A DNA stretch of 64,000 bases from positions 480,001 through 544,000 of the forward strand of contig CAXXMU010000006.1 in assembly GCA_963667785.2 (NCBI GenBank). The letters are read 5' to 3'. Made by a program: the position numbers and the translations under genes. Shown here piece by piece: positions 23,268-42,948 of this stretch. The notes beneath the pieces are model-generated. The model did not search any database and was not told the DNA's origin. It saw only the letters and a program-made list of their open reading frames with translations. The stretch comes from Alphaproteobacteria bacterium (lineage in GTDB: Bacteria > Pseudomonadota > Alphaproteobacteria > UBA828). Position 1 is the stretch's first letter. Every line of letters begins with the position of its first letter.

Positions 23268-23842
23268 TCGGGGACCTCCTCGAGCTCGGCGAGATCGGCC
23301 AGCAGGCCCTCCCAGCGGGCGACGTAGCCGACGGTCTCCTTCGCGTGCCGGCCGGTGACGGCCGGGAGGTGGGGCGCGATGCCGGCCCAGCAGGGCTCGC
23401 CGCCGGAGAGCTCCTGGGCGTCGATCAGGTGGCGCTGGCCGGCGTTGTAGCTCGCGACCTGGAGGCGCAGACGGCACCAGTCGGAGCGCGGGGCGCTCCA
23501 GATGCGGGCGAGCCCCTCCATATGGACCGCCGCGACGTGGGCGGAGAGCCAGGGGTCGAACGGGCTGCCCTCCCAGCCGCGGCGCTGCATGTGATCCGCC
23601 CAGGTCGCGGGCATGATCTGCCAGGCGCCCTCCGCGCCCGCCGGCGAGACCGCCTCGGCGCGCCAGTCGGATTCGGCGCCGGCCTGGGCCACCAGGGCAC
23701 ACCAGAGGTGCCGCCGCTGCGGCGCCCAGTGGAGCATCACCGCACGGCGCGCGTGGTCGCTGTAGAGCTGGCCGTCGGCGGCGTGCGGCGTGCAGGGCGT
23801 CAACGCCAGTTGCAGCGCGAGGAGGAGCTCGGCGCCGGACAC
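23264..23842 (-). CDS. SLT-family lytic transglycosylase (endolysin)
   Basis: AESDW...AVSPAGAEGAWQIMPATW...ASYNAG...ETVGYV. Confidence 0.9.
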   Translation of the reverse strand: MSGAELLLALQLALTPCTPHAADGQLYSDHARRAVMLHWAPQRRHLWCALVAQAGAESDWRAEAVSPAGAEGAWQIMPATWADHMQRRGWEGSPFDPWLSAHVAAVHMEGLARIWSAPRSDWCRLRLQVASYNAGQRHLIDAQELSGGEPCWAGIAPHLPAVTGRHAKETVGYVARWEGLLADLAELEEVPE

Positions 23843-23844
23843 GG

Positions 23845-24162
23845 CTACCCCGCCGGCGTGGCGAGCTGCCCGATCAGATCGAGGACACCGGAGATCGTGA
23901 ATCCGCTGAGGATGGCGAACGCGATGGCCAGCCCCGCCTGCCGGATAGCGCGTCCGGCGGTCGGCGGCCCCGTGGCGTTGAGGTCGGACTCCCAGATCGC
24001 CTGCGAGCTCTTGAGCTCGTCAATGAAGGGGAAGGCGGTCTTTTGCACCCGTGGCCAGCCCCAGAACAGGCTGATCACCGCGACGCCGGCGATGAGGCCG
24101 AGGAAAATCCAGCCGCAGGTGATGACGAAGGTGGCGAGCGATCCGGCCGTGTCCATCTGCAT
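23845..24162 (-). CDS. 2-TM membrane protein, putative holin
   Basis: Two hydrophobic segments; first gene of the lysis operon; GGAGG SD; M-Q-M start. Confidence 0.5.
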   Translation of the reverse strand: MQMDTAGSLATFVITCGWIFLGLIAGVAVISLFWGWPRVQKTAFPFIDELKSSQAIWESDLNATGPPTAGRAIRQAGLAIAFAILSGFTISGVLDLIGQLATPAG

Positions 24163-24196
24163 CCCTCCGGGGGGGGGCTGTGGTTGGGCGAGGGGG

Positions 24197-24257
24197 AGGC
24201 TACCCCGAAAATAGGGGGCCATTTATTCCAAAACCCGGCGGCGGACCGGGCTATCGT
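24197..24257. promoter_or_regulatory. putative bidirectional late promoter (lysis operon leftward, methyltransferase rightward)
   Basis: Site CATTTATTCCAAAAC at 24220-24234, with TAGCCT 17 nt away on the - strand and TATCGT 17 nt away on the + strand. Confidence 0.65.
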
Positions 24258-24263
24258 GCGCCG

Positions 24264-24423
24264 GGCAGCGCCACCGCCGGCGGGCTCCCTGAAGGGCCGG
24301 GCGGGGGCCGGGGTGTTGGGGACACCCCAACCGGGAGCCGGAGCTCCCACGACCGCAACCGGCCGCATCGCGGCCGTCCCGCCACCCCGCACGGGGCGGG
24401 GGCATTATCGTGGGAGCTCCCGG
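24264..24423 (+). ncRNA. structured 5' leader of the methyltransferase gene
   Basis: 13-bp stem 24340-24352/24408-24420 covers the GGGAG SD; internal hairpins GGGGTGT/ACACCCC and CGGCCGC/GCGGCCG. Confidence 0.55.
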
Positions 24424-25250
24424 TGTCGTCCAACCCGATGGATTGCGGCTTGCGGCCGGTGGAGGCCGCCGAGCCGATCGCCGCCTGGTTCGGCGGCAAG
24501 AAGTATCTCGCGAAGCGCATCATCGAGCGGATCGAGGCGGTGCCGCACGACTGCTATGCCGAGCCATTCTGCGGCATGGCCGGGGTGTTCCTGCGCCGCG
24601 CGCGCCGGCCGAGAACCGAGATCATCAACGATGCGAACGGGGAGATCGTCAACCTGTACCGCATCGCGCGCGAGCACCCCGCCGAGCTCATGCGGCAGTT
24701 TCGCTGGGTGCTCTCCGCCCGCGCCGACTTCGCCCGCCTGATGGAGACCCCGCCGGACGTTCTCACCGACGTCCAGCGCGCCGCCCGCTTCGCCTACCTC
24801 CAGACCATAATGTTCGGCGGCAAGCCCGCCACCCTGGGAAGCCGCGGCACCGTCTCGATCAGCGCCCACCATCCGGCGAAGCTCACCGACGCGCGGCTGC
24901 GCCGCCGCGTGGCCGCGGCGCACAGGCGGCTGCGGGGCGTCAATATCGAATGCCTCGACTGGAAGGCGTTCATCCGCCGGCACGACAAGCCCTTCACGCT
25001 CTTCTACATCGATCCGCCGTACTGGGGGCACGAGGCCGACTACGGCAAGGGCCTCTTCGCCCGCGAGGACTTCGCGGCGATGGCGACCATCCTTCGCGGC
25101 CTCAAGGGCCGCTTCATCCTGTCGCTGAACGACAGGCCCGAGGTGCGGAAGCTCTTCGCCGGCTTCCGGATGGAGGAGGTCGAGACGCGCTACAGCGCCA
25201 ACATCAAGTCCACGCGGCGTGTGGGAGAGCTGCTGATCAGCGGGGAGTGA
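24423..25250 (+). CDS. D12-class N6-adenine DNA methyltransferase
   Basis: WFGGKKYL, YAEPFCGMAGVF, INDANGEIVNLY and FYIDPPY motifs. Start is GTG 24423 or ATG 24438. Confidence 0.92.
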   Translation: MSSNPMDCGLRPVEAAEPIAAWFGGKKYLAKRIIERIEAVPHDCYAEPFCGMAGVFLRRARRPRTEIINDANGEIVNLYRIAREHPAELMRQFRWVLSARADFARLMETPPDVLTDVQRAARFAYLQTIMFGGKPATLGSRGTVSISAHHPAKLTDARLRRRVAAAHRRLRGVNIECLDWKAFIRRHDKPFTLFYIDPPYWGHEADYGKGLFAREDFAAMATILRGLKGRFILSLNDRPEVRKLFAGFRMEEVETRYSANIKSTRRVGELLISGE

Positions 25251-28222: not shown

Positions 28223-28951
28223 GTGAGCGGGCCGGGCGATCTCCGCGTGGTGGATCCCGGCGCGGCCGACGCGCCGGCCCCGGCGGACCGCGAGGCGTGG
28301 ATCGCCGCCGGCCTGGCGCTGGCGCAGGGCCGCTCCGAGGCATCGTGGGAGTTCGCCGACTGGCTCGCCGCCGGCCACGCCGCCTGGGGCCGCGAGGCCA
28401 TGCGCGAAGCCGCCGAGGCGACCGGCGCCACCGCCGGAAAAATCAGCCACTATCTAAAGACCGCAACGGGTTACCCTCCGTTGCGCCGGCGCAACGGCCT
28501 CACATTTTCGCACCATATGGAGGTCGCTCGCCTGCCCGAGGCCGACGCGGACCGCGTGCTGGACCGGGCCGAGGCCGAGCGCTGGTCTCGGAACGAGACC
28601 CGCGCTGCCGCCCGCGAGGTCTCGCTCGAGGTCAAGAACGCCAACCTCCACCGCAAGGTCGCGAAACTGGAGCGGGCGCTCGCTGCGGCGCAGGCGGACC
28701 CGGGCGACGCCGTCAAGCAGACGCGCTCGCGCCTCGATGCGGAGCGGCGCGTCATCCGCGACGCAGTCGGCCGCTCCGCCGGCATGGTGGAGGAGCTGGC
28801 CGAGACCGGCATCCTCGACGATCTGCACGGCAACGCCCGCAAGGGCTTCGCCGATCACGTCGACCGCTTCGGCAAGCGGCTGGCGGCCGACGTGAACGCG
28901 GCGCTCGACCGCATGCAGGCGGCGGCCGACAAGGTCCGGGCCTCGCAATGA
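28223..28951 (+). CDS. LmbU-like DNA-binding protein with coiled coil
   Basis: SWEFADWL...RRRNGLTFSHHMEVARLP...AEAERWS. Confidence 0.65.
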   Translation: MSGPGDLRVVDPGAADAPAPADREAWIAAGLALAQGRSEASWEFADWLAAGHAAWGREAMREAAEATGATAGKISHYLKTATGYPPLRRRNGLTFSHHMEVARLPEADADRVLDRAEAERWSRNETRAAAREVSLEVKNANLHRKVAKLERALAAAQADPGDAVKQTRSRLDAERRVIRDAVGRSAGMVEELAETGILDDLHGNARKGFADHVDRFGKRLAADVNAALDRMQAAADKVRASQ

Positions 28952-30744
28952 CCGCGCGAGCGCTGTGCCGCTACGGCGACGCCGACCGCACCGATCATGG
29001 GGCGTGCACCGATCCTGCAACGCCCGATCACGACACGCCCTGGGAGCGCGCCACGGAGACGCAGCGCAAGGACGCCGGCCGCCGGCTCGAGGCGGTGCAC
29101 CAGTCCAACGCCCTCCACGCCGGCGGCCTGTCGCGGGCAGACGCCGACAGGGTCACCGCCGCCGAGTTCGAGGTCTCGGCTTCGGCCGTCGCCAACTGGC
29201 GCGCCAAGGTGAAGCGCGCGCCGCGCGGCGAGGGTGTCGAGGCGCTGATCGATCGGCCCAGGACCGGGCGCCCGCCCGGCAAGTGGAGCCTGCCGGGCAG
29301 CGCCTTCCTGTGGCGGCTCTGGTGCAGCGACTACCTGCGCGAGGAGGCGCCTGACGCCGCGGCCGTGCACCGCAGGCTCGCGGCGGTCGCGGACCAGCAC
29401 GGCTGGCACCTGCCGCCGGTCGGGGCCTTTATCCGCCGGACCGGCAGGGAGTTCACGCGGGCCGAGGCCACCCGAGCCCGCGGGGGCGCGCTGGCCGCCA
29501 TGGACCTGGCGCCGCATCAGGTGCGCACCGTCCGCGGCCTCAAGCCGCTCGACATCGTCAACGGGGACGGGCGGCGCCACGACGTTCTGGTGGTGCTGCC
29601 CTCGGGCAGGGAGGGGCGCCCGGTCGTCTGGATGTGGCAGGATGTGCGCACGCGCCGCGTCCTCGCCTGGCGCGCCGGCGAGACGGAGAGCGCCGACCTG
29701 GTGCGGACCTCTCTGCATGCGTTGCTCGTGGAGCACGGGGTGCCGGGCCGGATCGTGGTCGATTCCACCCGCGCGGCCAGCGCGAAGTGGGCCACCGGCG
29801 GTCAGTTGCACCGCAAGCGCTGGCGCTCCACCGACGAGGAGCTGCCGGGGCTGCTGAAGATGCTGGACATCGGCTACTCGGCGACGACGGTGGACAGGGA
29901 CGCCGCCGGGCGCGGCAGGGGGCGCGGGCGCTCCAAGCCGGTCGAGCGGGCGTTCCTCGACCTCGCCAACCACATCGACACGCACCCGCTGCTGGCGGGC
30001 GCCGGCACCGGCCGCTCTCCGGTCGACCGGCCGGAGACGCACCGCATGCAGGCGGTGCCGTGGGAGACCTTTATCGAGGTCGTCGCGCGTGTCATCGCCG
30101 AGCACAACGCCCGGTCGGGGCGCCGCACCGAGGCGGCGGACGGCAGGAGTTTCGACGAGGTCTGGGCCGAGGAGATCGCCGGCACGGTCGTGCGGCGCCT
30201 CGCGCCGTCGCAGGCGGCGATCCTGCTGCTCGCCGCCGAGGACATGAAGATCGGCCCCGACGGCGCCTTCCGCCTGAAGGCCGGGCGCGGCGTCGGCCTG
30301 CCGCCCAACCGCTATCATCACCCCGACCTGGTGGAGCGTGCCGGCCAGCGCCTCGTCGGGCGCTTCGACCCGCAGGACCTGCACGGCGCCGTCCACGTCT
30401 TCGACCCGGCCGGCCGCTACATCTGCGCCGCTCCCTGCCACATGCCCGTCGCCTTCCGCGACGTGAACGCGCCCCGCCAGTGGGAGGGCGCGCGGAAGCG
30501 CGTGCGGAAGTCGGCCGAGGCCGGCCTCGCCGCGGAGCGCGACATGGACGAGCTGCAGCGCACCATGGCGGCGCTGCCGCCGCCCGAGGCGCCGCCCGAG
30601 CCCGAGCCTGCGGCGGTGCGCCTGGTGACCGGCGACGGCCTGCCCGAGGCCCCGGCCGCGCGCCGCACCGCACCCGAGGAGCGGCGGCGCAGCCCGTTGA
30701 TGGCTGCCCTGGTCGCCGCGCGCCGAGAGGAGGACGCATCGTGA
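28948..30744 (+). CDS. MuA-like DDE transposase
   Basis: SDYLREEAP, NGDGRRHDV, WQDVRTRRVLAW, IVVDSTRA, SKPVERAF, HNARSGRR and RFDPQDLH motifs; ATG at 28948. Confidence 0.93.
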   Translation: MTARALCRYGDADRTDHGACTDPATPDHDTPWERATETQRKDAGRRLEAVHQSNALHAGGLSRADADRVTAAEFEVSASAVANWRAKVKRAPRGEGVEALIDRPRTGRPPGKWSLPGSAFLWRLWCSDYLREEAPDAAAVHRRLAAVADQHGWHLPPVGAFIRRTGREFTRAEATRARGGALAAMDLAPHQVRTVRGLKPLDIVNGDGRRHDVLVVLPSGREGRPVVWMWQDVRTRRVLAWRAGETESADLVRTSLHALLVEHGVPGRIVVDSTRAASAKWATGGQLHRKRWRSTDEELPGLLKMLDIGYSATTVDRDAAGRGRGRGRSKPVERAFLDLANHIDTHPLLAGAGTGRSPVDRPETHRMQAVPWETFIEVVARVIAEHNARSGRRTEAADGRSFDEVWAEEIAGTVVRRLAPSQAAILLLAAEDMKIGPDGAFRLKAGRGVGLPPNRYHHPDLVERAGQRLVGRFDPQDLHGAVHVFDPAGRYICAAPCHMPVAFRDVNAPRQWEGARKRVRKSAEAGLAAERDMDELQRTMAALPPPEAPPEPEPAAVRLVTGDGLPEAPAARRTAPEERRRSPLMAALVAARREEDAS

Positions 30745-31712
30745 GCGACAACGTCACCCACCTGCCCGGCATGGAGCCGGAGCCGGCCGACGCCTACGAG
30801 GCGACGGTCACCGCCTGCCGCGCGGAGATGAAGGCCGCGCGGCTCTCGAACGCCCGCGCCGCGCACGAGATGGGGCGCGGGGTCTCCAGCGCCACGCTGT
30901 CGAAGTGGCTGCGCGGGGTCTACGAAGGCGACGTGCCGGCCGTCACGGAGCGCGTCGCGCTCTGGCTTCGGACCCGCGCGGAAGCCGCCGAGCGCGACAT
31001 GGCCGCCGCCGGGATCGACCGGCACGTCGATCTCGGCGTGACGGAGGAGATCGAGGCCACGCTCGCGCATGCGCAGGCGACGGGCGACGTGGTGCTGATC
31101 CACGGCCGCTCGGGCGCCGGCAAGAGCTGGGCGCTCGCCCGCTACTGCGCGGGCCACACCGCCGCCTACCGCGCGACGATGACCGACGCGGTGGTCACTC
31201 TGGCCGGCCTGCTCGGGCGCGTGGCGGAGACCGTTGGCGCCGGCGTCGGCCACCCCTCGGCGCTGGCGGCCGAGCGCGCCGTCATCGATCGCCTGGCGGG
31301 GCGCCGGGCGCTGCTCTGCGTCGACGAGGCGCACCACCTCCGGCCCCGCCTGCTCGACGAGCTGCGCTGCATCCGCGATCTCGCCGGGTGCGGCCTCGCG
31401 TTCGTCGGCCAGGACGAGATCTGGAACACGCTCGCGAAGTCCTCGCGGTGCGATCAGATCGTCGGGCGGATCGGCGTGCGCCTGCCGCTCAGGATGGCGG
31501 CCGAAGCCGACGTGCTGGAGCTCGCGCGCAACGTCCTCGGCCGCGCGCCGACGAAGGCGGAGCGGGACTGTCTGCTCGCCGCGGCCCGCGAGGCCGGCGG
31601 CCTGCACGCGCTGCGCCGCCTGTTCGAGCGCGCCTGGCGGTTGTCGCGCGGCGGGGGCGAGCGCGCCATCACCGCCGAGCACATCGCGGCCGCGACGGAG
31701 AGGGCGGCCTGA
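30741..31712 (+). CDS. MuB-like AAA+ ATPase
   Basis: N-terminal HTH (ATLSKWLRGVYEGD); Walker A GRSGAGKS; Walker B LCVDEAHHL; LDELRCIRD. Confidence 0.93.
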   Translation: MSDNVTHLPGMEPEPADAYEATVTACRAEMKAARLSNARAAHEMGRGVSSATLSKWLRGVYEGDVPAVTERVALWLRTRAEAAERDMAAAGIDRHVDLGVTEEIEATLAHAQATGDVVLIHGRSGAGKSWALARYCAGHTAAYRATMTDAVVTLAGLLGRVAETVGAGVGHPSALAAERAVIDRLAGRRALLCVDEAHHLRPRLLDELRCIRDLAGCGLAFVGQDEIWNTLAKSSRCDQIVGRIGVRLPLRMAAEADVLELARNVLGRAPTKAERDCLLAAAREAGGLHALRRLFERAWRLSRGGGERAITAEHIAAATERAA

Positions 31713-31939: not shown

Positions 31940-32160
31940 TGCTCTCCGACGAGCTCCGCGAGGCGCAGCGCGCCGTGGATTTCGAGATCCGCCGCGGTAC
32001 CTGCTCGTTGCAAATCTGGACCGCCTACTGCGAGCGCGTCGAGGAGATCGCCGAGCGCCTGGCGGCCTACGAGCACGCGGCCGGCCCCGGCCCGGCCTCT
32101 CGCGGCGACACCCCCGCCGGCGCCAACGTGGTGATGCTGCGCCCGGACGGGCCGGCATGA
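31939..32160 (+). CDS. hypothetical early protein
   Basis: Coupled ORF MLSDELREAQ...ANVVMLRP. Confidence 0.6.
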   Translation: MLSDELREAQRAVDFEIRRGTCSLQIWTAYCERVEEIAERLAAYEHAAGPGPASRGDTPAGANVVMLRPDGPA

Positions 32161-33155
32161 CGCCCCCCCCCGACAGCGCGCCGGACGAAAGCGTGCCGAC
32201 GTTGACGCCCGACCTCGTCTACAAGCGCGACGTCCTGCGCCGCCGGCTCGGGGACGAGCTGGGCGACCGCACCTTCCGCGCGTGGCTGGAGCGCAGCCTT
32301 GCCGCGGTGACGCCGGCGCCCGAGCCGGAGGAGCCGGCCGTGGCTGAGCCGCAGGCAGAGCCGGTTGTGTGCCACACGCCCGCAGAAGTGGCAGGCAACG
32401 GCGCTTGTCGGGCGCCCGTGGCCGACAAGCCGGCCGTGGCTGAGCCGGCGCCGACGAACGATGCGGGGAACGGTTGCGACGGGAGAGCGCCTTGCCCGGC
32501 TGCCTCTCCCGTCGTCGCCGGTTCGATTCCGGCGCTCCGCACCGAACGCACGGGGCCTGCCATCGCCGCCGCGACAGAGCGCGGCGATCTGCGGGGCCGG
32601 CCCTGGTCGGAGGAGGAGAAGCAGGCCCTCCGCGAGCGCTACATCGCCGGCGACGCCGTGGTGGATATCGCAGCGGCGCTGGGCCGCACGCGGAGCGCCA
32701 CGCTCCACGCAATCGACAAGCAGGGTCTCTGGGGCCACCCCGATCGCCCCTGCCGCCGGGCGCGGCGCGGAGGCACCCGCCGGCGGCCCGCGCCCGATCC
32801 CGAGCGCGAAGGCGATGCCCATCCCGAGTCGTCTCCCAGCGGGTGGTGGTCGGGAATCGTTGCCCCGATACCGGCTGAGCCGGAGCCCGAGACCGCGTCG
32901 CTTTCCGCGCCCACGGACGAGGAGCCGGAAAGCGACATCCCCGAGCCGGCGCCCGCGCCGCTGCGGGGCTGCCTCTGGATCGAGGGCGACGAGCGCGCGC
33001 CCACCTGGTGCGGCGCGCCGAGATCGCCCGGCAGACCCTACTGCATCGATCACTGCCTGCGGGCCTACGTCACCAGCTCCGGCAGGCGCTTCCCTCGCAG
33101 CCGCTTCGAGCGCCCGCCGGAGCCGATGGCGGCGCCCAGGAGGGCGTCGGCGTGA
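32157..33155 (+). CDS. GcrA-like regulator with N-terminal DnaA domain-I-like segment
   Basis: LRRRLGDELGDRTFRAWL; WSEEEKQALRERY...IAAALGRTRSA...GL; CLWIEGD..WCG...PYCIDHCLRAY. Confidence 0.75.
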   Translation: MTPPPDSAPDESVPTLTPDLVYKRDVLRRRLGDELGDRTFRAWLERSLAAVTPAPEPEEPAVAEPQAEPVVCHTPAEVAGNGACRAPVADKPAVAEPAPTNDAGNGCDGRAPCPAASPVVAGSIPALRTERTGPAIAAATERGDLRGRPWSEEEKQALRERYIAGDAVVDIAAALGRTRSATLHAIDKQGLWGHPDRPCRRARRGGTRRRPAPDPEREGDAHPESSPSGWWSGIVAPIPAEPEPETASLSAPTDEEPESDIPEPAPAPLRGCLWIEGDERAPTWCGAPRSPGRPYCIDHCLRAYVTSSGRRFPRSRFERPPEPMAAPRRASA

Positions 33156-33592
33156 GCACGCCGTCGCTCGCCAGAATCCAGCGGGAGGTCGCGCGGGCCT
33201 ACGGGCTCAGCATGACCGACCTGATCTCCCAGCGCCGCTCGCGGGAGGTCGTCTGGGGCCGTCACGTGGCGATGTATCTCTGCCGCCTGCTCACGCCGCT
33301 CTCGTATCCCGCCGTCGGGCGCCACTTCGGCAACCGCGATCACACGACCGTGATGTACGCCGTCGAGCGCGTCGCCGCCCGGCTGCACGTGGATGCGGAC
33401 GAGGCGGCGCGGATCGAGACGCTCGCGGCCGAGATCGCCGCACCGGCGGCGCAGGTACGGAGCGAGCCTCGTCTCTACGCCGACGATCGGGCGGCGCGTC
33501 GGCAGCTCCTGTTTTCGGTGCTGCTGGACGTGCACCACGGGAGGCTGGCGCGGCAGCAGCAGGCACTCGAGCGCCTGGAGGCGGCCCTGTGA
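33152..33592 (+). CDS. DnaA domain IV (Bac_DnaA_C) protein
   Basis: IQREVARAYGLSMTDLISQRRSREVVWGRHVAMYLCRLLTPLSYPAVGRHFGNRDHTTVMYAV. Confidence 0.9.
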   Translation: MSTPSLARIQREVARAYGLSMTDLISQRRSREVVWGRHVAMYLCRLLTPLSYPAVGRHFGNRDHTTVMYAVERVAARLHVDADEAARIETLAAEIAAPAAQVRSEPRLYADDRAARRQLLFSVLLDVHHGRLARQQQALERLEAAL

Positions 33593-33689: not shown

Positions 33690-34232
33690 ATGACCGAAAC
33701 CGTCACGCTGGAGCGGCCGAGCATGGACGAGATCGTTGCGCTCGCCCGCTCCTACGCGCGCGCCCGCGACGCCCTGGAGGCCGCCGGGGAGGAGATCAGG
33801 CAGTTGCAGCGCCGGGCGGCTCGCGACCGCCTGCGCGGGCTGCGGAGCCGCGTGGCCGAGGTCGCGGCGGCCGATGACGCGCTGAGGACGGCGATCAAGT
33901 CCAGCCCCGACCTGTTCGTGAAGCCGCGCACGGTCGCGGTCGACGGCGTGAAGGTCGGGCTCCGCAAGCAGGTCGGCGCGCTTGCCGTGAGCGACGAGGC
34001 GCGGGCGATCGAGCTGCTGCGGAAGCGGCTGCCGGCGCTGGCGGACACGCTGATCGCCACCAGGGAGACTCTCGACCGGAAGGCCCTCCGCAAGCTGCCG
34101 GCCGCCGACCTGGCGCGGATCGGCGTCACCATCGGCGACCCCACCGACGAGGTGGTGATCGCCGCGGCCGAGAGCGACGTCGACAAGCTCGTCGACGCCC
34201 TGCTCGACGACAGCGTGGAGGCGGCGGCGTGA
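33690..34232 (+). CDS. Mu Gam-like host-nuclease inhibitor
   Basis: Coiled coil, then PDLFVKPRTVAVDGVKVGLRK...ETLDRKAL...LARIGV. Confidence 0.75.
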   Translation: MTETVTLERPSMDEIVALARSYARARDALEAAGEEIRQLQRRAARDRLRGLRSRVAEVAAADDALRTAIKSSPDLFVKPRTVAVDGVKVGLRKQVGALAVSDEARAIELLRKRLPALADTLIATRETLDRKALRKLPAADLARIGVTIGDPTDEVVIAAAESDVDKLVDALLDDSVEAAA

Positions 34233-34648: not shown

Positions 34649-34893
34649 GCGCCCCCCCCCAGAGGCGCCGCATGAGCGCCGGCCGTCCCTCGATCGACGA
34701 GTTCGTGCCCGGCGGCATCCTGACGAGCGATCGCCCGCACCGCTGGGTGATGGGCGACGTCTGCAGCCGCTGTGGCGCGGAGATCGGCGACGACGAGGTG
34801 CCGCTGGAGGTCTACAGCCCCGACACCGTGACCATGTGGGTTTTCTGCGACGGCTGCATCGGGGCGGGCGTGCCCGAGAGCGCCAAGCACTAG
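34645..34893 (+). CDS. Zn-ribbon protein, paralog 2
   Basis: GILTSDRP...CSRCGAEI...WVFCDGC; in frame across a C9 tract. Confidence 0.65.
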   Translation: MSAPPQRRRMSAGRPSIDEFVPGGILTSDRPHRWVMGDVCSRCGAEIGDDEVPLEVYSPDTVTMWVFCDGCIGAGVPESAKH

Positions 34894-34903: not shown

Positions 34904-35149
34904 ATGAAATTCCAGATCTGGGCGAGCGCGCCGGGCGAGAGGCAAAAGACCGATGGCGGCATCACGGAATTCGAGCGTGAGTACGCCACGTCGACCGCTG
35001 CAGCCGGCAGAGCCGAGATGCTGCTATGCCAGGGCCGCGAGGTGCACATCGTCCCGGTGGCCGACGACGCGGACCCGCCCCCCCCGGGGGGGGGCGAGCG
35101 AAGAGGCGGGCGACCCGCTCGCCATACCGCCGTTCCTGAGGCGGGCTGA
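34904..35149 (+). CDS. hypothetical protein containing a C8G9 tract
   Basis: AGGAG SD; MKFQIWAS. Confidence 0.5.
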   Translation: MKFQIWASAPGERQKTDGGITEFEREYATSTAAAGRAEMLLCQGREVHIVPVADDADPPPPGGGERRGGRPARHTAVPEAG

Positions 35150-35158: not shown

Positions 35159-35698
35159 GTGACCGCGCCCGACCTCCTCGTCCGCAAGGGCGCGTCCTTC
35201 TCGCCGTGCCGGCGCTGGCGCTACAAGCTCTGGCGCATCTGGTCGGATGATGCCCGGCTGCTCGTCGTGGTCGGGCTCAATCCCTCCACGGCGGACGAGA
35301 CCGTCGACGATCCCACCATCCGGCGCTGCATCGACTACGCGAGGCGCTGGGACTGCGGCGGCCTCCAGATGCTGAACCTGTTCGCGGTCCGGGCCACCGA
35401 CCCCAAGGCCATGCTCGCGGCCGACGATCCGGTCGGGCCGGACAACAAGGACGCCTTCGACGAGGTGCTGGGGAAGCTGCGCGGCCGGCCTGCGCCGCTC
35501 GTTCTCTGCGCCTGGGGCGCTCGCGGCTCCCACATGGACCAGGACGAGCACGCGCTCGACTGGCTCGACTGGCCGGACATCACCCCGATGTGCCTGGGCC
35601 TGACCGAGGGCGGGATGCCGCGGCACCCGCTCTATGTGAGGAAGACCGTCATGCCCAGGCCCTATCTGGGACGTGGCGCTGAGGGAGATGCGCCGTGA
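35159..35698 (+). CDS. DUF1643 family protein
   Basis: FSPCRRWRYKLWRIW, GLNPSTAD..DDPTIRRC, NLFAVRATDP and PRHPLY motifs. Confidence 0.9.
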   Translation: MTAPDLLVRKGASFSPCRRWRYKLWRIWSDDARLLVVVGLNPSTADETVDDPTIRRCIDYARRWDCGGLQMLNLFAVRATDPKAMLAADDPVGPDNKDAFDEVLGKLRGRPAPLVLCAWGARGSHMDQDEHALDWLDWPDITPMCLGLTEGGMPRHPLYVRKTVMPRPYLGRGAEGDAP

Positions 35699-36360
35699 CC
35701 GCGCCCGCCTCCGACGAGCGCAAGCGCCTGATCAAGCAGGTGCACGCCGAGGCGCGCCGCCTCGGCATCGATACCGACGAGCGCCGGGCGCTGCAGGTCC
35801 GCGCCGTCGGCAAGGAGAGCTGCGCCGACATGTCCGCCTCGGAGCTCCGCAGCGTCGTCGCCGCCATGGGCGAGGGCCGGGACCGCCTGCCGGACCACGC
35901 GTCGGCGCGGAAGCTGCAGGCGCTCTGGATCAGCGGCTACTGCCTCGGCGTGATCGAGGACCGCCGCGACAGCGCCCTCTGCGCCTGGCTGCGCCGCCAG
36001 GCCAAGGTGGACGCGGCGCAGTGGGCGAAGCCGGGCCAGCTCGCGAAGGCGGTGGACGCGATGAAGCTCTGGCTCACGCGGGAGGCCGGCGTGGACTGGT
36101 CGCCCTACGTCATCCTCGGCCGCGACGGCGTGGATCGCGAGGTGCACAACCCGCAGGCCCGCGTCCTCGAGGCGCAGTGGCGCCTGCTGCACAAGCTGGG
36201 CTGGGTGCGCAATCCCGACCTGAGCGCGCTCGCGAGCTACGCCACCCGGCACGGCCGGCTCGCGCACGCGGGCACGCATACCGAGCTCCGCGACCGCGAG
36301 GCGGTCGCGCTGATGCAGGATCTCGCCACGCAGATCCGCGAGGCGCGCGGCAATGGCTAG
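35695..36360 (+). CDS. gemA: GemA/gp16-like (DUF1018) regulator
   Basis: LIKQVHAEARRLGID...GKESCADMS...RKLQALW...AVDAMKLWLTR. Confidence 0.85.
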   Translation: MTAPASDERKRLIKQVHAEARRLGIDTDERRALQVRAVGKESCADMSASELRSVVAAMGEGRDRLPDHASARKLQALWISGYCLGVIEDRRDSALCAWLRRQAKVDAAQWAKPGQLAKAVDAMKLWLTREAGVDWSPYVILGRDGVDREVHNPQARVLEAQWRLLHKLGWVRNPDLSALASYATRHGRLAHAGTHTELRDREAVALMQDLATQIREARGNG

Positions 36361-37175: not shown

Positions 37176-37218
37176 TTTTGGAACAAAAACCCTGCCGATC
37201 CCGGTGTAGCCTCTGCGC
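37175..37218 (+). promoter_or_regulatory. putative late promoter (tail operon), apparently leaderless
   Basis: GTTTTGGAACAAAAA-N17-TAGCCT-N6-ATG. Confidence 0.75.
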
Positions 37219-39066
37219 ATGAATGCTCAGATCGATCTTCACGGCGCGGAGGTCCTGTATCTTCCGGACCAGACGGCGCCGATCACGGTCGGCCCGAGCT
37301 CGATCGTCGGTCTTGTCGGGGCGGCCACGAACGCACAGGCGGCCGTAGCCGCGAAGCTGGCCGTCGGCCAGGGCAACGCGGGGCTGACGTTCACGGCGGC
37401 GGCGCAGGTCGCCGCGCTGATCGCCAGGCTGGAGGTCGGCGCGGGCAACGCGGGGCTGGAGTTCGCGGCGGACGCTGCCGGCGCGGCCGGCAACACCATC
37501 ACCGTCGCGCTCGCCGATCCGGGCGCGAACAGCTCTCCGCTGACCGTCGCCGTAGCGGGCCGCGACATCACCGTCTCGCTGGCGACCGGCAACGCAGGCG
37601 CCATCACCAGCACCGGCGCGGAGGTCCTGGCGGCCGTGAACGCGCACGCCGGCGCCTCGGCACTGGTCACGGCCGCGGACGCCGCAGGCTCGGACGGCAC
37701 CGGCACGGTTGCCGCCCACGCCAAGACCGCGCTCGCGGGCGGCGCCGACGCCCGCCCGCAGGGGGGTGTCGCCGGCAACGGCATCACCCTGGAGCTGTTC
37801 CGTCCGAACCTCGTCTCCCAGGCGCTCAGCGTCGCCGTCGAGGGCCGCAACATCACCGTCTCGCTGGCGACCGACGCCGACGGCGCGGTGCACACCACGG
37901 GCGCGGCGCTCGTCGCCGCGTGGGCGACCCAGGCCTACGCGGCCGCGCGCGCGCTCGTCGCGATCGCCAGCTCTCCCGGCTCCGACGGCAGCGCCACCCT
38001 CTCGCCCGTCGGCCGCACGGCGCTCGCCGGCGGCATGGACGAGCCGTTCCCGCTGAACACGCCGACCGCGATCCGGAACGCGGCCCACGCCGCGCAGCTC
38101 GGCACCGCCGGCTCGCTCCCCGAGGCGATCGCGGACGTCTGGCGCACCGCCGGGCGGGGCGGCGCCACCATCGTCGTCGTGCGCACGGCCGACGACACCG
38201 CCGCCAACATCATCGGCTCGAGGGCCGCGGGCGCCTACACCGGCGTCTACGCCCTGCTCGCCGCGGAGGCGCGCACCGGCCTCAAGCCCCGGCTGATCGC
38301 GGCGCCGGCCCTGCAGACGACTGCGGCCGCGCTCGCGCTCGAGGCGGCGGCCGACAAGCTGCGCGCGATCCCCGTCGTGGCGCTCGCCGGCGCGGACTAT
38401 TCGGCCGCCCTCGCCTCGCGGTCCTCTCTCGCCCACGCCTACTGTGTCTGGCCGAAGTTCAAGGTATTCGACGCCGCGGCCGGCACCCTCGTCGACCGCT
38501 GGGCGGCGGCGCTCACCGTCGGCCATATCGTCCGCGTCGACGGCGAGGAGTCCTACGCCGCCTCGCCGTCGAACCGGCAGCTCCAGGACGTGGCCGGCAC
38601 CTCGGTCGCGATCGACTGGCAGATCGACGGCCGGACGTCCACCGCCAACCTGCTGTCGCGGGCCTTCATCGTCACGGCGATCCGGCGCGGCAACGGGCTC
38701 TACCTGTGGGGCAACCGGCTCGCCGACGGCGAGCTGATCACGCACCGCCGGGTGCGCCACCTGATCGGCGACGCGCTGCTCTCGTTTGTCGCCGACTGGA
38801 TCGACCGCAACGTCGACGTGCCCTTCGTCGAGTTCATCCTCGACCGCATGAACAGCTTCCTGCGCGGCCGGACCCTCGCCGGGATCATCACGGGCGGGCG
38901 GGCCTGGTTCGACGCGGAGTACAACACGCCGGAGACCCTGGAGGCCAACCAGGTCACCTTCAGCTTCGACTGCGGCCTCCACGCCGTGGCCGAGCAGCTG
39001 ACGTTCCGGCAGTCGGTGTCCGGCGTCTACAACGCCCGCATCATCGAGCAGCTGACGGGGGCATAG
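37219..39066 (+). CDS. tail sheath protein (P2 FI-like) with nested insertion domains
   Basis: LHGAEV..SIVGLVGAA, EPFPLNTP, YTGVYALLAAEARTGLKPRLIAAP, ASPSNR and LWGNR motifs. Confidence 0.93.
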   Translation: MNAQIDLHGAEVLYLPDQTAPITVGPSSIVGLVGAATNAQAAVAAKLAVGQGNAGLTFTAAAQVAALIARLEVGAGNAGLEFAADAAGAAGNTITVALADPGANSSPLTVAVAGRDITVSLATGNAGAITSTGAEVLAAVNAHAGASALVTAADAAGSDGTGTVAAHAKTALAGGADARPQGGVAGNGITLELFRPNLVSQALSVAVEGRNITVSLATDADGAVHTTGAALVAAWATQAYAAARALVAIASSPGSDGSATLSPVGRTALAGGMDEPFPLNTPTAIRNAAHAAQLGTAGSLPEAIADVWRTAGRGGATIVVVRTADDTAANIIGSRAAGAYTGVYALLAAEARTGLKPRLIAAPALQTTAAALALEAAADKLRAIPVVALAGADYSAALASRSSLAHAYCVWPKFKVFDAAAGTLVDRWAAALTVGHIVRVDGEESYAASPSNRQLQDVAGTSVAIDWQIDGRTSTANLLSRAFIVTAIRRGNGLYLWGNRLADGELITHRRVRHLIGDALLSFVADWIDRNVDVPFVEFILDRMNSFLRGRTLAGIITGGRAWFDAEYNTPETLEANQVTFSFDCGLHAVAEQLTFRQSVSGVYNARIIEQLTGA

Positions 39067-39070
39067 GCCG

Positions 39071-39619
39071 ATGGCGCTCAGGAAGGTCCTCCACGGCTTC
39101 GCCGTCTACGTGGACGGCATCGAGTACATCGGGGTGGCCGAGAGCTTCACGCCGCCCGATATCGTGCTCGAGGTCGAGGAATCGAACATGCCGGGCCACG
39201 GCGGGACGATCGACATCCCCACCGGCCGACTGGAGAAGCTCGAGGCGACCTTCGTCATGGGCGATTCCTATCCGGCGCTGGAGACGCTCGTCGGCCGGCC
39301 GGACGCCGTCGACGTCCCGATCCTCTTCAACAAGGTCTCGACCGACGGCACGACGCCCCGCGTGGTCGAGTACCGGCTCGCCGGCCTCTGGACGCGCCAG
39401 AGCCTCGGCGAGGTTTCGGGCGGAGGCGGCGCGGGCGGAGGCGGAGGCGGCCGCTGCGAGTACACCGTCTCGCTCCGGACGCTGACCCACCTCATCGACG
39501 GCACCGAGCAGCGCCACATCGACCTCGAGCGGAACATCCACCGCATCGCCGGCACCGACGTCAACGCCGGCCTCAGCAGCCTGCTGCGCCGCGGGCGCGC
39601 CGGCAGGGCGGGAGCATAG
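39071..39619 (+). CDS. tail tube protein (P2 FII-like)
   Basis: LHGFAVYVDGIEYIG..ESFTPP...LEKLEATF...IDLERNIHRIAGTD. Confidence 0.9.
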   Translation: MALRKVLHGFAVYVDGIEYIGVAESFTPPDIVLEVEESNMPGHGGTIDIPTGRLEKLEATFVMGDSYPALETLVGRPDAVDVPILFNKVSTDGTTPRVVEYRLAGLWTRQSLGEVSGGGGAGGGGGGRCEYTVSLRTLTHLIDGTEQRHIDLERNIHRIAGTDVNAGLSSLLRRGRAGRAGA

Positions 39620-39623
39620 GCAC

Positions 39624-39983
39624 GTGACCGAAGACCAGATCACCGTCACGCTCACCCATCCGATCGAGATCGACGGCAAGACCGTCTCCAGCCTGACCCT
39701 GCGGCGCCCCCTGGTGAAGGACCTGATCGCGGCCGAGCGCCAGCCCGGCTACGTCGGCCAGGATGCCGCGCTCCTGGCCCAGTGCGCCGGCATCAACTTC
39801 GCCGACGTCGGCAAGATCGACGCCGGCGACTACCGTCGCATCATCGGCGAGTCCGACCTGGGTTTTTTCTCGAGCGATGCCGGGCCGCAGGAACCCTCCG
39901 GCGACCCCGCATCGACGGCGGCATCAGGCGCGCCGTCCTCATCCTCAACCGATCAACCGGCTGGGGCCTCTGCGACCTCCTAG
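39624..39983 (+). CDS. tail assembly chaperone (P2 gpE/Mu gp41-like)
   Basis: VTLTHPIEIDGKTVSSLTLRRPLVKDL...IDAGDY. Confidence 0.88.
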   Translation: MTEDQITVTLTHPIEIDGKTVSSLTLRRPLVKDLIAAERQPGYVGQDAALLAQCAGINFADVGKIDAGDYRRIIGESDLGFFSSDAGPQEPSGDPASTAASGAPSSSSTDQPAGASATS

Positions 39984-40048
39984 ACCAGACGCCCGCCGAT
40001 CTCGTCGCCTGGCTCGATGAGGCGGCGGCGCTGAACCGGCGGCGCTGA
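39860..40048 (+). other. -1 programmed frameshift site and gpE'-like extension
   Basis: Slippery G GGT TTT at 39860-39866; the -1 frame reads ...STGWGLCDLLDQTPADLVAWL and stops at the TMP start. Confidence 0.8.
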
Positions 40049-42948
40049 TGACCGATTCCACCTACCGCGTAGGCGTCTTCCTCGACCTCGCCGCCGGCCG
40101 CTTCCGCCGGGGCGCGAAGGCGGCCGCGAAGGACACCGGACGCCTCGGCGGCTTCTTCCGGAAGGCGGCCGGAGACGCCTCGCTCATGGGCCGGCGCGTC
40201 GCCGAGGGCTCCCGCGGCGCGCGGCGCGAAGTGCGCCGGACCGCCGAGGAGGCGCAGCGCCTGGGCCGCACGCTCCGGGGCACCGGGCGCGACGGCGAGC
40301 AGGCCGTCGGTCGCCTCACCCGGAAACTGAGGGGCTACCGCACCGAGATGGGCCTCACGGCCCGCGCGGCCGGGCGGCTGCGCGGCGGCGTCGGCGGTGT
40401 CGCGGGCATTCTAGGCGTCGGCGGGGGCGCTTTCGCCGTCGCCGCCGGCCTCCGGCGCATCATGACTACAGAGCAGCGCGTGGAGCGGCTCGGCATCCAG
40501 GCCGGCCGCTCCACGGAAGATATGCAGCGGCTTCGCAAGGAGGTGTACGCGACCGCCAATCTGCCCGAGATCCGGCTCGACCCGTCCCAGCTTCTCGCCG
40601 CCGTGGAGGCGATCGTCGAGAAGACCGGGGATCTCGACTTCGCGCGGGACAACCTCCTGCTGATCGCGCAGTCGATTCAGGGCTCGGGCGGCACCGGCGA
40701 CGCTCTCGGGCGCCTCTCTGCCGAGCTGCGCAAGCTGGGCATCGCCGATCCCGCCGGGGTCGCGCGGGCGCTCAACCTCCTCACCGCGCAGGGCAAGTCC
40801 GGCGCGTTCACGCTCGGCAACATGGCGGCCCAGGGCGAGCGCCTGTTCTCGGCCTTCAGCCGCCTCGGCTATCAGGGGGAGGATGCCGTCCGCCAGCTCG
40901 GTGCGATCTCCCAGATGGCCCGCCAGTCCACCGGCTCCAGCGAGCAGGCAGCTACCGCCGTGGAGGCGCTGCTGCGCACGCTCTCCGATGCGCAGAAGAT
41001 CGACGCCATATGGGCAGAGTTCGGCGTCAACGTGCGCGACCCCACCGGGGCGTTCCGCCCGCTCGACCAGATCCTGAAGGAGGTCACCGCCGCGACGGGC
41101 GGCGATCCCACGCGCCTTTCCGGGGTCTTCGACGCCGAGGCCATCCGGGCGATTTCCGCCCTAATGACGGCGAGAGGCTGGGCGGATTTCGAGCGCTTCC
41201 TCTCTTTCGACGGGCAGCAGGACGTGCTCGGGCGATTCCGGCCGGGGCCGCACATGCTGGAGCAGGATGCCGCCAGGATGGCCGTGACGACCGGCGCACA
41301 ACTCCAGGAGACCAAGACCGACGTCGAGGACTGGATGCAGGAGAACCTGACCGGCCCGCTCGGCGAGGTCGTGACGGCGCTCACCTCGTTCAAGGACGAG
41401 CTGCTGGTGGGGGCCGGCCTCCTCGCCGGCTCCTGGTATGCGTTCCGAGGTCTCCGCGCCGCCGGCGGCCTGCTCTGGCGGCTCGCCGGGCGCGGCGGAC
41501 CGGGAGGGCGCCCGCAGGGACCATGGCCCGGAGCGCCGGCGGGCGGCGTCGGCCCCACGGCGCGGCCGAGGAACGCATGGGACGGCACCGGGAGAAGCGG
41601 CCCCACGGGACGACCCAACAATGCCTGGTCAGAAGCGCGCCGCCAGCTCGCTATCGCCCGCTCGCGCGAGCAGGCGGCGCATTGGGAGGCGACGCGCTCA
41701 ATACGGGAAGCGGCGGCTCGCCGGAGTGCGGCCCTGACGCGCGAGCGCAGGGTGTCCCTCATGCGCCAGCTCAGCGGCCGAGGTCCCGGCGGCCCAAGGG
41801 GAGACCAGGTGCGGCTCAGCGGCCGAGGCCCCGGCGGCCCGAGAGGCGACCAGGTGCGCGGCAGTGGCCGGGGTCTGGGCGGTCCCAGGGGAGATCAGGT
41901 ACGGCTCAGCGGCCGAGGGCCCGGCGGCCCGAGGGGAGATCAGGTACGGCTCAGCGGCCGAGGGCCCGGCGGCCCGAGGGGAGACCAGGTCCGTCTGAGC
42001 GGACGCGGTCCCGGCGGGCCGAGGGGCGGCCCCCTGGCCGAGGCGCGGCGGCAGCTTGCGCTGGCGCGATCGCAGGCGGAGGCCGCGCGGCGCGCCCGCG
42101 AGGGGGCGGCCAGACGCACTCCGTCCCTGATGCGGCCGGAGCCGGCGAGCTCCGGCCCCGCGGCTCGGCCGAGGAACGCTCCGACGAGGGGCTCGGCCAG
42201 GTGGGGGGGCGGCCTGTTTCGCGCGCTCGCCCGCGGTCTCGGTCCGGCCAGCGCCGGCGCCATGATGGGCCTCACGGCCCACGACATCGCCACCGGCGCC
42301 ATTCCCGGCGACCGGGTCGCGCCCGAGGTGGGCGGCCTCATGGGCGGGCTCGCCGGCTCCACGGCGGCCGCAGCGTCCGTCGGCAGGCTCACGAAGTTCC
42401 TGCCGGGCCCGGTCCGCTTCGGGGGGTCGCTCCTGGCCGGCCTGGCCGGCTGGATGGGGGGCGAGAGCGCGGGCCGCGCCGCCACGGATGCGGTGTTCGA
42501 TCCGGGCTGGGTCTCGCCCGAGAGCGCGGAAGCGGCGGGCCGTTTCTATAATTGGCTCGATCGTGTGGCCGGGCGAGGGCCGGAGCCTGGGGCACCGGAG
42601 ATCGGGAACTGGCGCGGGGTCGGCCTCCGGCCGCGCAACCGGGGGCGCCTCGACGTCGGGCAGAACCGGCCGGAGGTGTGGGAGCCGGCGCTGCCGCCGC
42701 CGGAGGTGGTGGAGATCCCGTGGCCGCCCGAGCAGGAGCCCGCGACCGGGAGGAATCGGGGGCGCCTCGACATCGGGCGGGGCGACGTTACGGTCACGAT
42801 CCACATCAATGAAGTGAACTCGAACGCCGCCGATCCGCGCGAGGTGGCCGAGGAGGTCGCCGACGAGATCGAGCGCAGGATGCGCGACAGGAGCCGCACG
42901 ATTCGCGACGTGCTCTTCGCCGATCCGTCACCTGAATCGGTGAACTGA
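40048..42948 (+). CDS. tail tape measure protein
   Basis: 966 aa after the chaperone; GKSGAFTLGNMA, SSEQAATAVEALL and VFDAEA core motifs. Confidence 0.9.
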   Translation: MTDSTYRVGVFLDLAAGRFRRGAKAAAKDTGRLGGFFRKAAGDASLMGRRVAEGSRGARREVRRTAEEAQRLGRTLRGTGRDGEQAVGRLTRKLRGYRTEMGLTARAAGRLRGGVGGVAGILGVGGGAFAVAAGLRRIMTTEQRVERLGIQAGRSTEDMQRLRKEVYATANLPEIRLDPSQLLAAVEAIVEKTGDLDFARDNLLLIAQSIQGSGGTGDALGRLSAELRKLGIADPAGVARALNLLTAQGKSGAFTLGNMAAQGERLFSAFSRLGYQGEDAVRQLGAISQMARQSTGSSEQAATAVEALLRTLSDAQKIDAIWAEFGVNVRDPTGAFRPLDQILKEVTAATGGDPTRLSGVFDAEAIRAISALMTARGWADFERFLSFDGQQDVLGRFRPGPHMLEQDAARMAVTTGAQLQETKTDVEDWMQENLTGPLGEVVTALTSFKDELLVGAGLLAGSWYAFRGLRAAGGLLWRLAGRGGPGGRPQGPWPGAPAGGVGPTARPRNAWDGTGRSGPTGRPNNAWSEARRQLAIARSREQAAHWEATRSIREAAARRSAALTRERRVSLMRQLSGRGPGGPRGDQVRLSGRGPGGPRGDQVRGSGRGLGGPRGDQVRLSGRGPGGPRGDQVRLSGRGPGGPRGDQVRLSGRGPGGPRGGPLAEARRQLALARSQAEAARRAREGAARRTPSLMRPEPASSGPAARPRNAPTRGSARWGGGLFRALARGLGPASAGAMMGLTAHDIATGAIPGDRVAPEVGGLMGGLAGSTAAAASVGRLTKFLPGPVRFGGSLLAGLAGWMGGESAGRAATDAVFDPGWVSPESAEAAGRFYNWLDRVAGRGPEPGAPEIGNWRGVGLRPRNRGRLDVGQNRPEVWEPALPPPEVVEIPWPPEQEPATGRNRGRLDIGRGDVTVTIHINEVNSNAADPREVAEEVADEIERRMRDRSRTIRDVLFADPSPESVN
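41767..42030 (+). repeat. 45-bp coding tandem repeat (about 6 x QVRLSGRGPGGPRGD)
   Basis: Full units start at 41806, 41851, 41896, 41941 and 41986, after a partial first unit; differences are mostly synonymous. Confidence 0.9.

Follow-up and report, generated by a model that had tools for sequence, protein, structure and literature searches.

Overlapping genes for a GcrA-like protein and a stand-alone DnaA domain IV in the early operon of an alphaproteobacterial Mu-like prophage

The master regulators of the cell cycle in Alphaproteobacteria include GcrA and DnaA, and relatives of both, previously noted separately in phages, are found here locked together in the early operon of a transposable phage. 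The pair lies in a 64,000-nucleotide stretch of DNA from an alphaproteobacterium of the lineage UBA828 (the window: positions 480,001 to 544,000 of contig CAXXMU010000006.1, assembly GCA_963667785.2; G000:C6:480001-544000 in our numbering). There, a gene for a GcrA-like protein (P0001) is followed by an overlapping gene for a DnaA domain IV within a Mu-like prophage, with MuB on one side and Gam on the other. The identity of the parts, their conservation, and their phage setting are observed; every functional step is one that we infer from them. In the reading that we prefer, and to which we assign a probability of about one half, the two coupled early genes would reprogram the host early in the lytic cycle.

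The assignment of the first gene is exemplified by the agreement of sequence profiles and structural prediction. Residues 150-311 match Pfam GcrA (PF07750) at 32.1 bits (cut-off 26.9) over model positions 3-152 of 155, and no other Pfam family matches P0001 at E<=1, hence there is no match to the GafA-type DUF6456 either. A family profile run against the PDB finds Caulobacter crescentus GcrA (7YE1_G, E 3.6e-13), its sigma-interacting domain (5YIX_B), and its DNA-binding domain (5YIU_A). In the AlphaFold (AF2) model, built from a 12-row alignment with a mean predicted local distance difference test (pLDDT) score of 58, two helices (residues 18-35 and 37-51, pLDDT about 75-85), a helix-turn-helix (HTH) domain (152-188, above 90), and a C-terminal domain (about 70) are separated by stretches that fall below 50 (64-142 and 198-253). 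Foldseek places the model closest to 5YIV_A, the DNA-binding domain of GcrA (template modeling score to target 0.89, root mean square deviation 1.1 Å, 45 columns). A preliminary description of this DNA, made from the letters alone, had proposed an open reading frame (ORF) at 32157-33155 with a long Pro/Ala linker, a GcrA-type HTH, and a GcrA-type Cys/His C terminus, and all four are recovered here: the ORF encodes 332 amino acids from an ATG that overlaps the TGA of a small upstream ORF (317 from an alternative TTG start at 32202), the linker is predicted to be disordered and varies in length, and the two domains are matched as described. We regard the window gene as a member of the GcrA family and not as the cell-cycle orthologue, because it scores far under the cut-off of the NCBIfam GcrA equivalog NF050816 (24 bits against 280) and because the host's own gcrA lies elsewhere (C6:472594-472989, minus strand; Pfam, 100 bits), about 7 kb before the window and about 40 kb from the prophage copy.

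When the C-terminal domain is compared with its counterpart in GcrA, a function in sigma factor binding is suggested. The sigma-interacting domain of GcrA is a CCCH zinc finger (C118, C133, C143, and H146), and its binding to sigma70 depends on W120, G129, F130, F132, Y142, Y151, K119, and D124 (PMC5887438). The four ligands are C272, C285, C296, and H299 in the phage protein and are invariant in 12/12 aligned members. Among the contact positions, W120, D124, Y142, and Y151 are kept as W274, D278, Y295, and Y304; W284 stands in place of F132, K119 is changed to L273, and G129 and F130 fall in a shortened loop where they cannot be placed. From these conserved residues, the GcrA-like protein very probably binds sigma70; the zinc domain would dock on region 2 of the host main sigma factor, and the protein would travel with RNA polymerase.

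The central HTH, in comparison, may be an optional DNA-reading head. It is present in 11 of the 18 family members and absent in five (P0008, P0009, P0012, P0137, and the ORF of locus L002), which keep the module described below and the zinc domain; the other two, P0134 and P0135, are fragments or result from frameshifts. In GcrA, removal of the DNA-binding domain leaves a slight acceleration of promoter melting, and the domain reads methyl groups via R33, N34, I37, and G38 (PMC5887438). These four positions are R, S, L, and H in P0001 and K, R, I, and G in most homologues, with P0139 (which keeps N, I, and G) and P0006 (which keeps N34 and G38) as exceptions. Since the phage protein does not retain the methyl-pocket residues of GcrA, it should not be presumed to bind methylated GANTC.

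The second gene of the pair encodes 146 amino acids and is, as the preliminary description had recognized from its RDHTTVMYA signature, a clear DnaA domain IV. It matches Pfam Bac_DnaA_C (PF08299) at 94.7 bits (cut-off 31.5), and its PDB matches are E. coli DnaA (1J1V_A, E 1.1e-13), 8BTG, and 3PVP. In E. coli DnaA, P423, D433, H434, and H439 have a role in contacting the DnaA box; the first three are retained as P53, D63, and H64, and H439 is replaced by Y69, as it is in the host DnaA. The further contact residues R399, S400, and T435 (PMC9638019) are retained as R29, S30, and T65. The gene is not a recent capture from the host, because it shares no more than 41% identity with domain IV of the host DnaA; seven full-length homologues were found. 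The AAA+ domain III (Pfam Bac_DnaA) is absent from the 146-residue protein, and the single Bac_DnaA match of the genome is on contig C5. Following domain IV is a helix that the host DnaA does not have, in which 15/33 positions are invariant in eight sequences. A protein of this kind, lacking domains I, II, and III, would be expected to bind DnaA boxes and to be unable to oligomerize, unwind DNA, or load the helicase.

The two genes are tightly coupled wherever their DNA could be inspected, namely, in the window, in a second copy on contig C1 of the same genome (L036, G000:C1:192000-211000), on another genome contig (L002), and on a viral contig (L003). In 4/4 of these loci, the domain IV gene begins 4 nucleotides before the end of the stop codon of the GcrA-like gene (GTGA or ATGA), and the order MuA, MuB, small ORF, GcrA-like gene, domain IV gene, Gam is kept. 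Translational coupling of the two genes, in a rare lineage of alphaproteobacterial Mu-like transposable prophages, is thus a natural proposal. The overlap and the phage setting of the preliminary description hold, with MuA, MuB, Gam, DUF1643, and GemA around the pair, and the pair is conserved. As all four loci belong to one phage lineage, this is conservation within that lineage and not independent recurrence.

The family itself is very small. A word-indexed search returned 11 homologues of P0001, and an exhaustive phmmer search of 1.84 billion representative proteins with residues 17-63 as the query returned 11 proteins at E<=0.001, of which five are new family members and three are unrelated (415-602 residues with 3-8 matched stretches, one of them visibly repetitive). 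The family total of 18 sequences includes the window, the C1 copy, and the L002 ORF. A tblastn search of P0001 against 50,697 phage records gave nothing at E<=1e-3, and a single metagenome locus (L004) matches the zinc domain only (residues 271-331).

The GcrA-like protein carries an almost invariant two-helix module at its N terminus. Across six representatives, 30/40 columns of this module are invariant, with the whole proteins only 43-55% identical (two close copies excepted), and among the 1.84 billion representatives, the module is confined to the GcrA-like family, always N-terminal and with the zinc domain wherever the protein is whole. In comparisons of the window with L003 and with L002, 36 codons of the module give in each case 24 identical, 9 synonymous, and 3 non-synonymous pairs, and a stretch of 36 codons in the zinc domain gives 23, 5, and 8 and 15, 7, and 14, respectively. 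As the codon differences in the module are mainly synonymous, unlike those in the zinc domain, selection on the module acts at the protein level and is stronger than on the zinc domain. An overlapping DNA element as the source of the conservation was considered and rejected, since the differences between loci are mostly synonymous and include an AGC/TCT/TCC serine codon switch. It can also be asked whether the two genes, a GcrA paralogue and a DnaA fragment, are passengers that the phage picked up and that persist through linkage, without bearing on the lytic cycle. The very small family, its confinement to one phage lineage, and the rearranged prophage in which the window copy sits would suit such a view, which we nevertheless hold to be most improbable given the strong purifying selection on module, zinc ligands, and DnaA signature among copies just 40-50% identical overall and given the conserved early-operon position and overlap.

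The preliminary description had taken the N terminus for DnaA domain I, and what stands of this is a local motif. A custom DnaA_N profile, made from 29 alphaproteobacterial DnaA proteins (out of 30 loci returned, L005 being left out), scores 15.5 bits over 19 residues of the 40-residue module (E 5e-7 for one sequence), and hhalign of the module against the DnaA_N alignment gives 93.5% (P 2.3e-7, 22 columns). In the reciprocal direction, a module profile was run over 401 genomes of the class, and in 24 of these (E<=0.01 per genome) its columns 12-30 matched an ORF with a length of 460-660 residues. For 14 genomes, sequence or coordinates verified the match as the DnaA N terminus (G040, by coordinates, among them), and for the other 10, this is presumed by frame length only (among them G240). 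In a six-frame scan of the genome with the DnaA_N profile (47,242 fragments), the window ORF ranks third with an E value of 0.92 and the second gene copy fourth, and an unrelated fragment also scores 10.6 bits, on par with the window ORF. The likeness spans the end of alpha1, the turn, and alpha2, with 9/22 residues identical to the host DnaA in a hand alignment.

Beyond this motif, the features of DnaA domain I are not found. The domain has the fold alpha1-alpha2-beta1-beta2-alpha3-beta3, in which Trp6 serves dimerization, Phe46 serves DnaB and DiaA, and Glu21 and Trp25 are named for DiaA binding, Glu21 also for DnaB (PMC5448010). The modeled module consists of two helices followed by disorder, with no beta-strands, no alpha3, and nothing that matches Phe46; by hand alignment, Trp43 and Thr39 fall at the positions of Trp25 and Glu21, as in alphaproteobacterial DnaA, and in a hand extension of that alignment, Arg24 occupies the position of Trp6. 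Pfam DnaA_N (PF11638) matches neither the whole protein (E<=1) nor residues 1-144 (E<=10), a DnaA_N family search of the whole genome returns the host dnaA on contig C5 alone, and there is no DnaA domain I structure among the best 50 of 500 Foldseek matches or in the PDB sequence matches. Taken together, these comparisons of sequences and models indicate that the DnaA likeness is real, that it is a motif only, and that the module is not to be classed as a DnaA_N domain.

A closer relative of the module was identified in an unnamed family of small proteins. In this genome, the module profile has its best non-self match in a protein of 95 residues encoded on contig C5 (E 6.3e-5); a paralogue on contig C6 comes next, and DnaA has rank 7 (E 1.2). 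The same family tops the matches in four other genomes (E 1.4e-6 to about 1e-3, columns 1-34), three of which carry 7-12 copies. With hhalign, its N-terminal 36 residues align with the module at 96.7% (P 4.7e-10, 36 columns, 47% identity), and against DnaA_N, the family reaches 27.5%. The small C-terminal domain of the family is its own and differs from the phage protein, and there is no GcrA part. On this comparison, the unnamed family is assigned here as the nearest relative of the module, closer than DnaA. It comprises chromosomal proteins of 88-125 amino acids in Alphaproteobacteria, with 46 homologues of 88-119 residues found, many of them on megabase contigs. The family gives no functional clue yet, because neither Pfam nor NCBIfam matches it and no source gives it a name; an ESM Atlas look-up gave no usable match, and four multi-copy loci (L039-L041 and L043) have no neighbor in common. 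In this genome, about 370 bp separate one copy from lexA, and the two are transcribed divergently.

These results bear directly on two ways in which the likeness to DnaA could be functional. In the first, the module acts as a domain I that pairs with host DnaA or holds DnaB or a regulator and, with the domain IV gene, makes up a core-less dnaA that blocks or redirects initiation. The reciprocal similarity to alpha1-alpha2, the placing of Thr39 and Trp43 at the Glu21 and Trp25 positions in our own alignment (PMC5448010), and the adjoining domain IV gene are what such a mimic would predict. We consider it improbable, as Pfam DnaA_N has no match, the module has two helices with no beta-sheet, no alpha3 or Phe46, and an Arg at the Trp6 position, domain I structures are missing from the matches listed above, and the unnamed family matches the module better and over its full length. 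For the same reasons (two helices only, no Pfam DnaA_N match, and a closer relative in the unnamed family), the picture drawn in the preliminary description of a dnaA whose AAA+ core was swapped for gcrA finds no support. In the second, the module mimics a host docking motif common to the DnaA N terminus and the unnamed small proteins and so links a conserved host factor of replication or the cell cycle to sigma70-RNA polymerase, with the domain IV protein serving as the mark on DnaA boxes. This is a speculative and rather unlikely proposal; if true, it would make of the pair a two-gene device that couples transcription to replication-initiation control, a phage-built, ATPase-less DnaA rewiring the alphaproteobacterial cell cycle in Mu-type replication.

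In the main rival to the preferred reading, the partner of the module is the domain IV protein itself. The pair would then be a split activator similar to GafY/GafZ: the domain IV protein would bind phage promoters, the module would dock on it, perhaps through the extra helix, and the zinc domain would bring sigma70-RNA polymerase, turning on the middle or late genes. The 4-nucleotide overlap in 4/4 loci suggests equimolar co-expression, and five members have no DNA-binding domain of their own; the one of these with DNA context, L002, still precedes a domain IV gene. The conserved helix absent from DnaA and the precedent of GafA and a small DnaA-like gene in Hyphomicrobiales (PMC9638019) also fit. 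Against this, canonical DnaA boxes are not conserved in the phage early regions, P0001 has no match to the GafA-type DUF6456 (only GcrA at Pfam E<=1), and the conservation of the module (30/40 invariant) is far above that of the domain IV tail (15/33). Because the module is near-invariant and the tail moderately conserved, a fixed host target fits better than a co-evolving phage partner, and we regard the split activator as possible yet doubtful. A complex prediction for residues 1-62 of the first protein with the whole domain IV protein scored 0.00 against a mark of 0.32, which gives no verdict and is not used as evidence.

The reprogramming reading can then be set out from its parts. The N-terminal module, a family-specific addition homologous to the N terminus of the unnamed small proteins, would hold a conserved host partner. 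The GcrA-like protein on sigma70-RNA polymerase would retarget the enzyme or compete with host GcrA. With the domain IV protein sitting on DnaA boxes, initiation through DnaA and the promoters that DnaA regulates would both be damped. The blocking of origin firing, as the preliminary description suggested, is plausible.

The distribution of potential binding sites adds little to this. Canonical DnaA boxes (TTATCCACA, <=1 mismatch) number 4 in the window against 1.2 expected (3/100 shuffles reach 4), with two of the four near the prophage regulatory and right-end regions; L002 has 1, and the C1 copy, over 19 kb, has none. Genome-wide, 135 canonical boxes were found, with no cluster of 3 within 600 bp, and since the host genome thus shows no box clusters, the consensus is uninformative in this organism. 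The scarcity of canonical boxes in phage DNA points, weakly, to targets in the host and not in the phage.

GANTC is strongly depleted in the window (99 found against 270 expected). A cluster of it does occur at the right end of the prophage, because it falls within the repeated GCGATTCC motif, whose copies are probably transposase-binding end repeats. The preliminary description had suggested that the pair might redirect the host machinery to GANTC-rich phage ends; since the methyl-pocket residues are not kept, reading of the methylated site by the GcrA-like protein cannot be taken for granted. Three copies of CCGATTCC, spaced by 22-23 nucleotides, lie at 5945-5997 on the minus strand in opposite orientation to the right-end repeats, inside a gene for Cu/Zn superoxide dismutase (5414-6037) or at its end; they may represent the left end of a rearranged element or have arisen by chance.

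Several points weigh against the reprogramming reading. A shutdown of DnaA is not known to benefit Mu-type replication, and growth of Mu is reportedly even reduced in dnaA mutants according to old work. Strict coupling would be expected as much of two genes with separate functions as of two that act jointly. The family is tiny, with 18 sequences, and all of its conservation may come from one phage lineage. Box counts say little either way in a host genome without a cluster of consensus DnaA boxes, and the domain IV protein could recognize a variant site outside the canonical-box search. The GcrA-like protein has methyl-pocket residues that differ from those of GcrA, and its HTH is absent in 5/18 members, so that its DNA targets cannot be carried over from GcrA.

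A further feature of the GcrA-like gene is the C9 tract near its start (32163-32171), which the preliminary description had correctly pointed out. A poly-C tract follows the ATGA in 4/4 loci. With C9 in the window and C12 in the C1 copy, the ATG is in frame with the module, and with C12 in L003 and C11 in L002, it is out of frame; in the out-of-frame loci, a short upstream frame stops at the TGA in (T/C)TGACC, exactly at the TTG or GTG with which the module opens. Two of the four loci come from metagenome assemblies, in which homopolymer lengths are unreliable. Judging from these frames, both arrangements allow the conserved protein to be made, either bearing the 15-residue extension or lacking it. 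Nine homologues (P0003, P0005, P0007, P0010, P0011, P0013, P0136, P0137, and P0139) start at M/V-(L)T.DL. The early region has more long homopolymers (34650-34681 and 35065-35096), found as an inverted-repeat pair: one run of C9, and one of C8 that is followed by a run of G9. Together with the tract at 32163, they suggest a homopolymer habit of this operon.

The prophage features are collected in Table 1. MuA, MuB, Gam, and GemA form a single co-oriented block by Pfam, Gam being under the Pfam cut-off. The start of the transposase is uncertain, as the open frame extends back to 28204. The DNA of the small upstream ORF is 95.6% identical to that of the C1 copy, and in P0135, a homologue of this ORF is joined to the N-terminal module by a frameshift. 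The window prophage has a rearranged gene order: to the left of the early operon, the minus strand (7400-24250) carries Mu-like genes for lysis, head, and baseplate, and sheath, tube, tape measure, and gpU follow directly after GemA on the plus strand (37200-44530). This could reflect an inversion, two partial prophages, or an assembly error. The second Mu-like prophage of the genome (L036) has the canonical order of early genes, GemA, lysis, gp27-like gene, and terminase. Because the two prophages are 91-96% identical over small ORF, pair, Gam, and GemA and about 81% identical in the short stretches that align elsewhere, the early module may have moved between otherwise diverged prophages. 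Directly left of the early region is a gene for a D12-class (Dam-type) N6-adenine methyltransferase (24180-25250, plus strand), which probably belongs to the phage, because a 78% identical gene occupies the equivalent place in the C1 copy.

Table 1. Coordinates of the gene pair, its domains, and associated features (positions in the window unless a locus or contig is named)
Feature	Position	Strand	Evidence or remark
MuA-type DDE transposase	28900..30744	+	Pfam DDE_2 1.8e-45, HTH_Tnp_Mu_2, Mu-transpos_C
MuB-like AAA+ protein	30741..31712	+	Pfam AAA_22 1.1e-13; in L002 and L003, too, it follows the transposase
Small upstream ORF, 73 aa	31939..32160	+	No known family; TGA overlaps ATG at 32157 (ATGA)
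GcrA-family gene, 332 aa from ATG	32157..33155	+	Pfam GcrA 32.1 bits; PDB 7YE1_G E 3.6e-13
Poly-C tract, C9, between ATG and module	32163..32171	+	
Near-invariant two-helix N-terminal module, residues 16-55 (LTPDLVYKRDVLRRRLGDELGDRTFRAWLERSLAAVTPAP)	32202..32321	+	AF2 helices 18-35 and 37-51; hhalign
Pro/Ala/Glu-rich linker, predicted disordered, residues 56-147	32322..32597	+	pLDDT <50 over 64-142; length varies among homologues (indels)
GcrA-type HTH DNA-binding domain, residues 148-192	32598..32732	+	pLDDT >90; Foldseek 5YIV
GcrA-type sigma70-interacting CCCH zinc domain, residues 269-320	32961..33116	+	Matches 5YIX_B
DnaA domain IV gene, 146 aa	33152..33592	+	GTG start in GTGA 4-nt overlap; Bac_DnaA_C 94.7 bits; RDHTTVMYA
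C-terminal 33-residue helix of domain IV protein, residues 113-145	33488..33586	+	AF2 pLDDT 77-88, after disordered 100-110
Mu Gam-like gene	33690..34232	+	Pfam Phage_Mu_Gam 4.4e-05, 23.9 bits, under 28.3 cut-off; kept downstream of the pair in L002 and L003
DUF1643	35159-35698	+	Downstream of Gam-like gene
GemA	35695-36360	+	Then tail sheath, tube, tape measure, gpU
Minus-strand block	SLT 23264-23842; gp27; terminase 19916-21331; Mu F; protease I; baseplate V 11992-12411	-	
GCGATTCC repeats	Exact copies 44717, 44737, 44755; one-mismatch copy 44641; extra GATTC 44554		Within 44540-44770, just past last tail gene
C1 copy of the pair	L036: GcrA-like gene 8647-9531, domain IV gene from 9528		
Unnamed small-protein family, copies in this genome	L035:5051-5338 (G000:C5:118550-118837); paralogue near G000:C6:895300		Others L039-L041, L043, L057

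A GcrA relative that carries a new, near-unchanged module and a dispensable DNA-binding head asks whether a sigma70-docking domain alone suffices for takeover. It also raises the questions of what the module binds and whether a free domain IV can shut down the host origin. Answers would at the same time provide an initial clue to the unnamed family of chromosomal proteins in which the module also occurs.

When the pair is placed beside known systems, both its parts are of familiar kinds. C. crescentus GcrA (PDB 7YE1, 5YIX, and 5YIV; PMC5887438 and PMC4647560) has HTH, long disordered linker, and CCCH zinc domain in the identical order, with the zinc ligands and several sigma70-contact residues kept in the phage protein. 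The phage protein differs in its roughly 147 extra N-terminal residues with the two-helix module, in its zinc spacing (C-X12-C-X10-C-X2-H against C-X14-C-X9-C-X2-H), and in the replacement of the methyl-pocket residues N34 and G38. A phage-encoded GcrA homologue, gp222 of the virulent Caulobacter siphophage phiCbK, has been proposed to alter the host replicative state, and the available part of that source describes neither an N-terminal module nor a DnaA domain IV partner (PMC3556154). Stand-alone DnaA_C proteins are likewise already annotated, in Aurantimonas phage AmM-1 (gp63), Rhizobium phage RHph_N28_2, and Bradyrhizobium phages, and are alike in domain and DnaA signature; 0/39 phage DnaA_C matches cover 80% of the query, the added C-terminal helix being unmatched, and no GcrA gene is annotated beside the phage DnaA_C genes in the two inspected. 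YfdR of the cryptic prophage CPS-53 and lambda P, which are precedents for the reprogramming reading, interfere with DnaA-dependent initiation by binding DnaA itself (PMC4776307), whereas the candidate here would compete for DNA sites and has no sequence relation to them.

A comparable arrangement is that of GafA of RcGTA, a gene transfer agent found in Rhodobacter capsulatus, which combines a DnaA-like N-terminal DNA-binding domain with RNA polymerase binding, and which in Hyphomicrobiales is represented by a shorter gafA preceded by a small DnaA-like gene (PMC9638019). Both are phage-derived alphaproteobacterial elements in which a DnaA-like DNA-binding module and an RNA polymerase-binding partner are fused or adjacent. 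In the GafA system, however, the DnaA-like gene precedes its partner and resembles DnaA remotely, and that partner binds the omega subunit (PMC9638019), whereas in the present pair, domain IV is close to DnaA and comes second, and the partner is GcrA-like, so that the arrangement is analogous only. A literature search on GcrA, DnaA domain IV, Mu-like phages, and GafA, which did not extend to the supplements of the cited papers, found no description of this pairing, of the invariant module, or of the HTH-less forms. Phage GcrA homologues and phage DnaA_C proteins are thus known kinds, and what is new is their locked pairing in Mu-like phages, the invariant N-terminal module, and the forms without an HTH.

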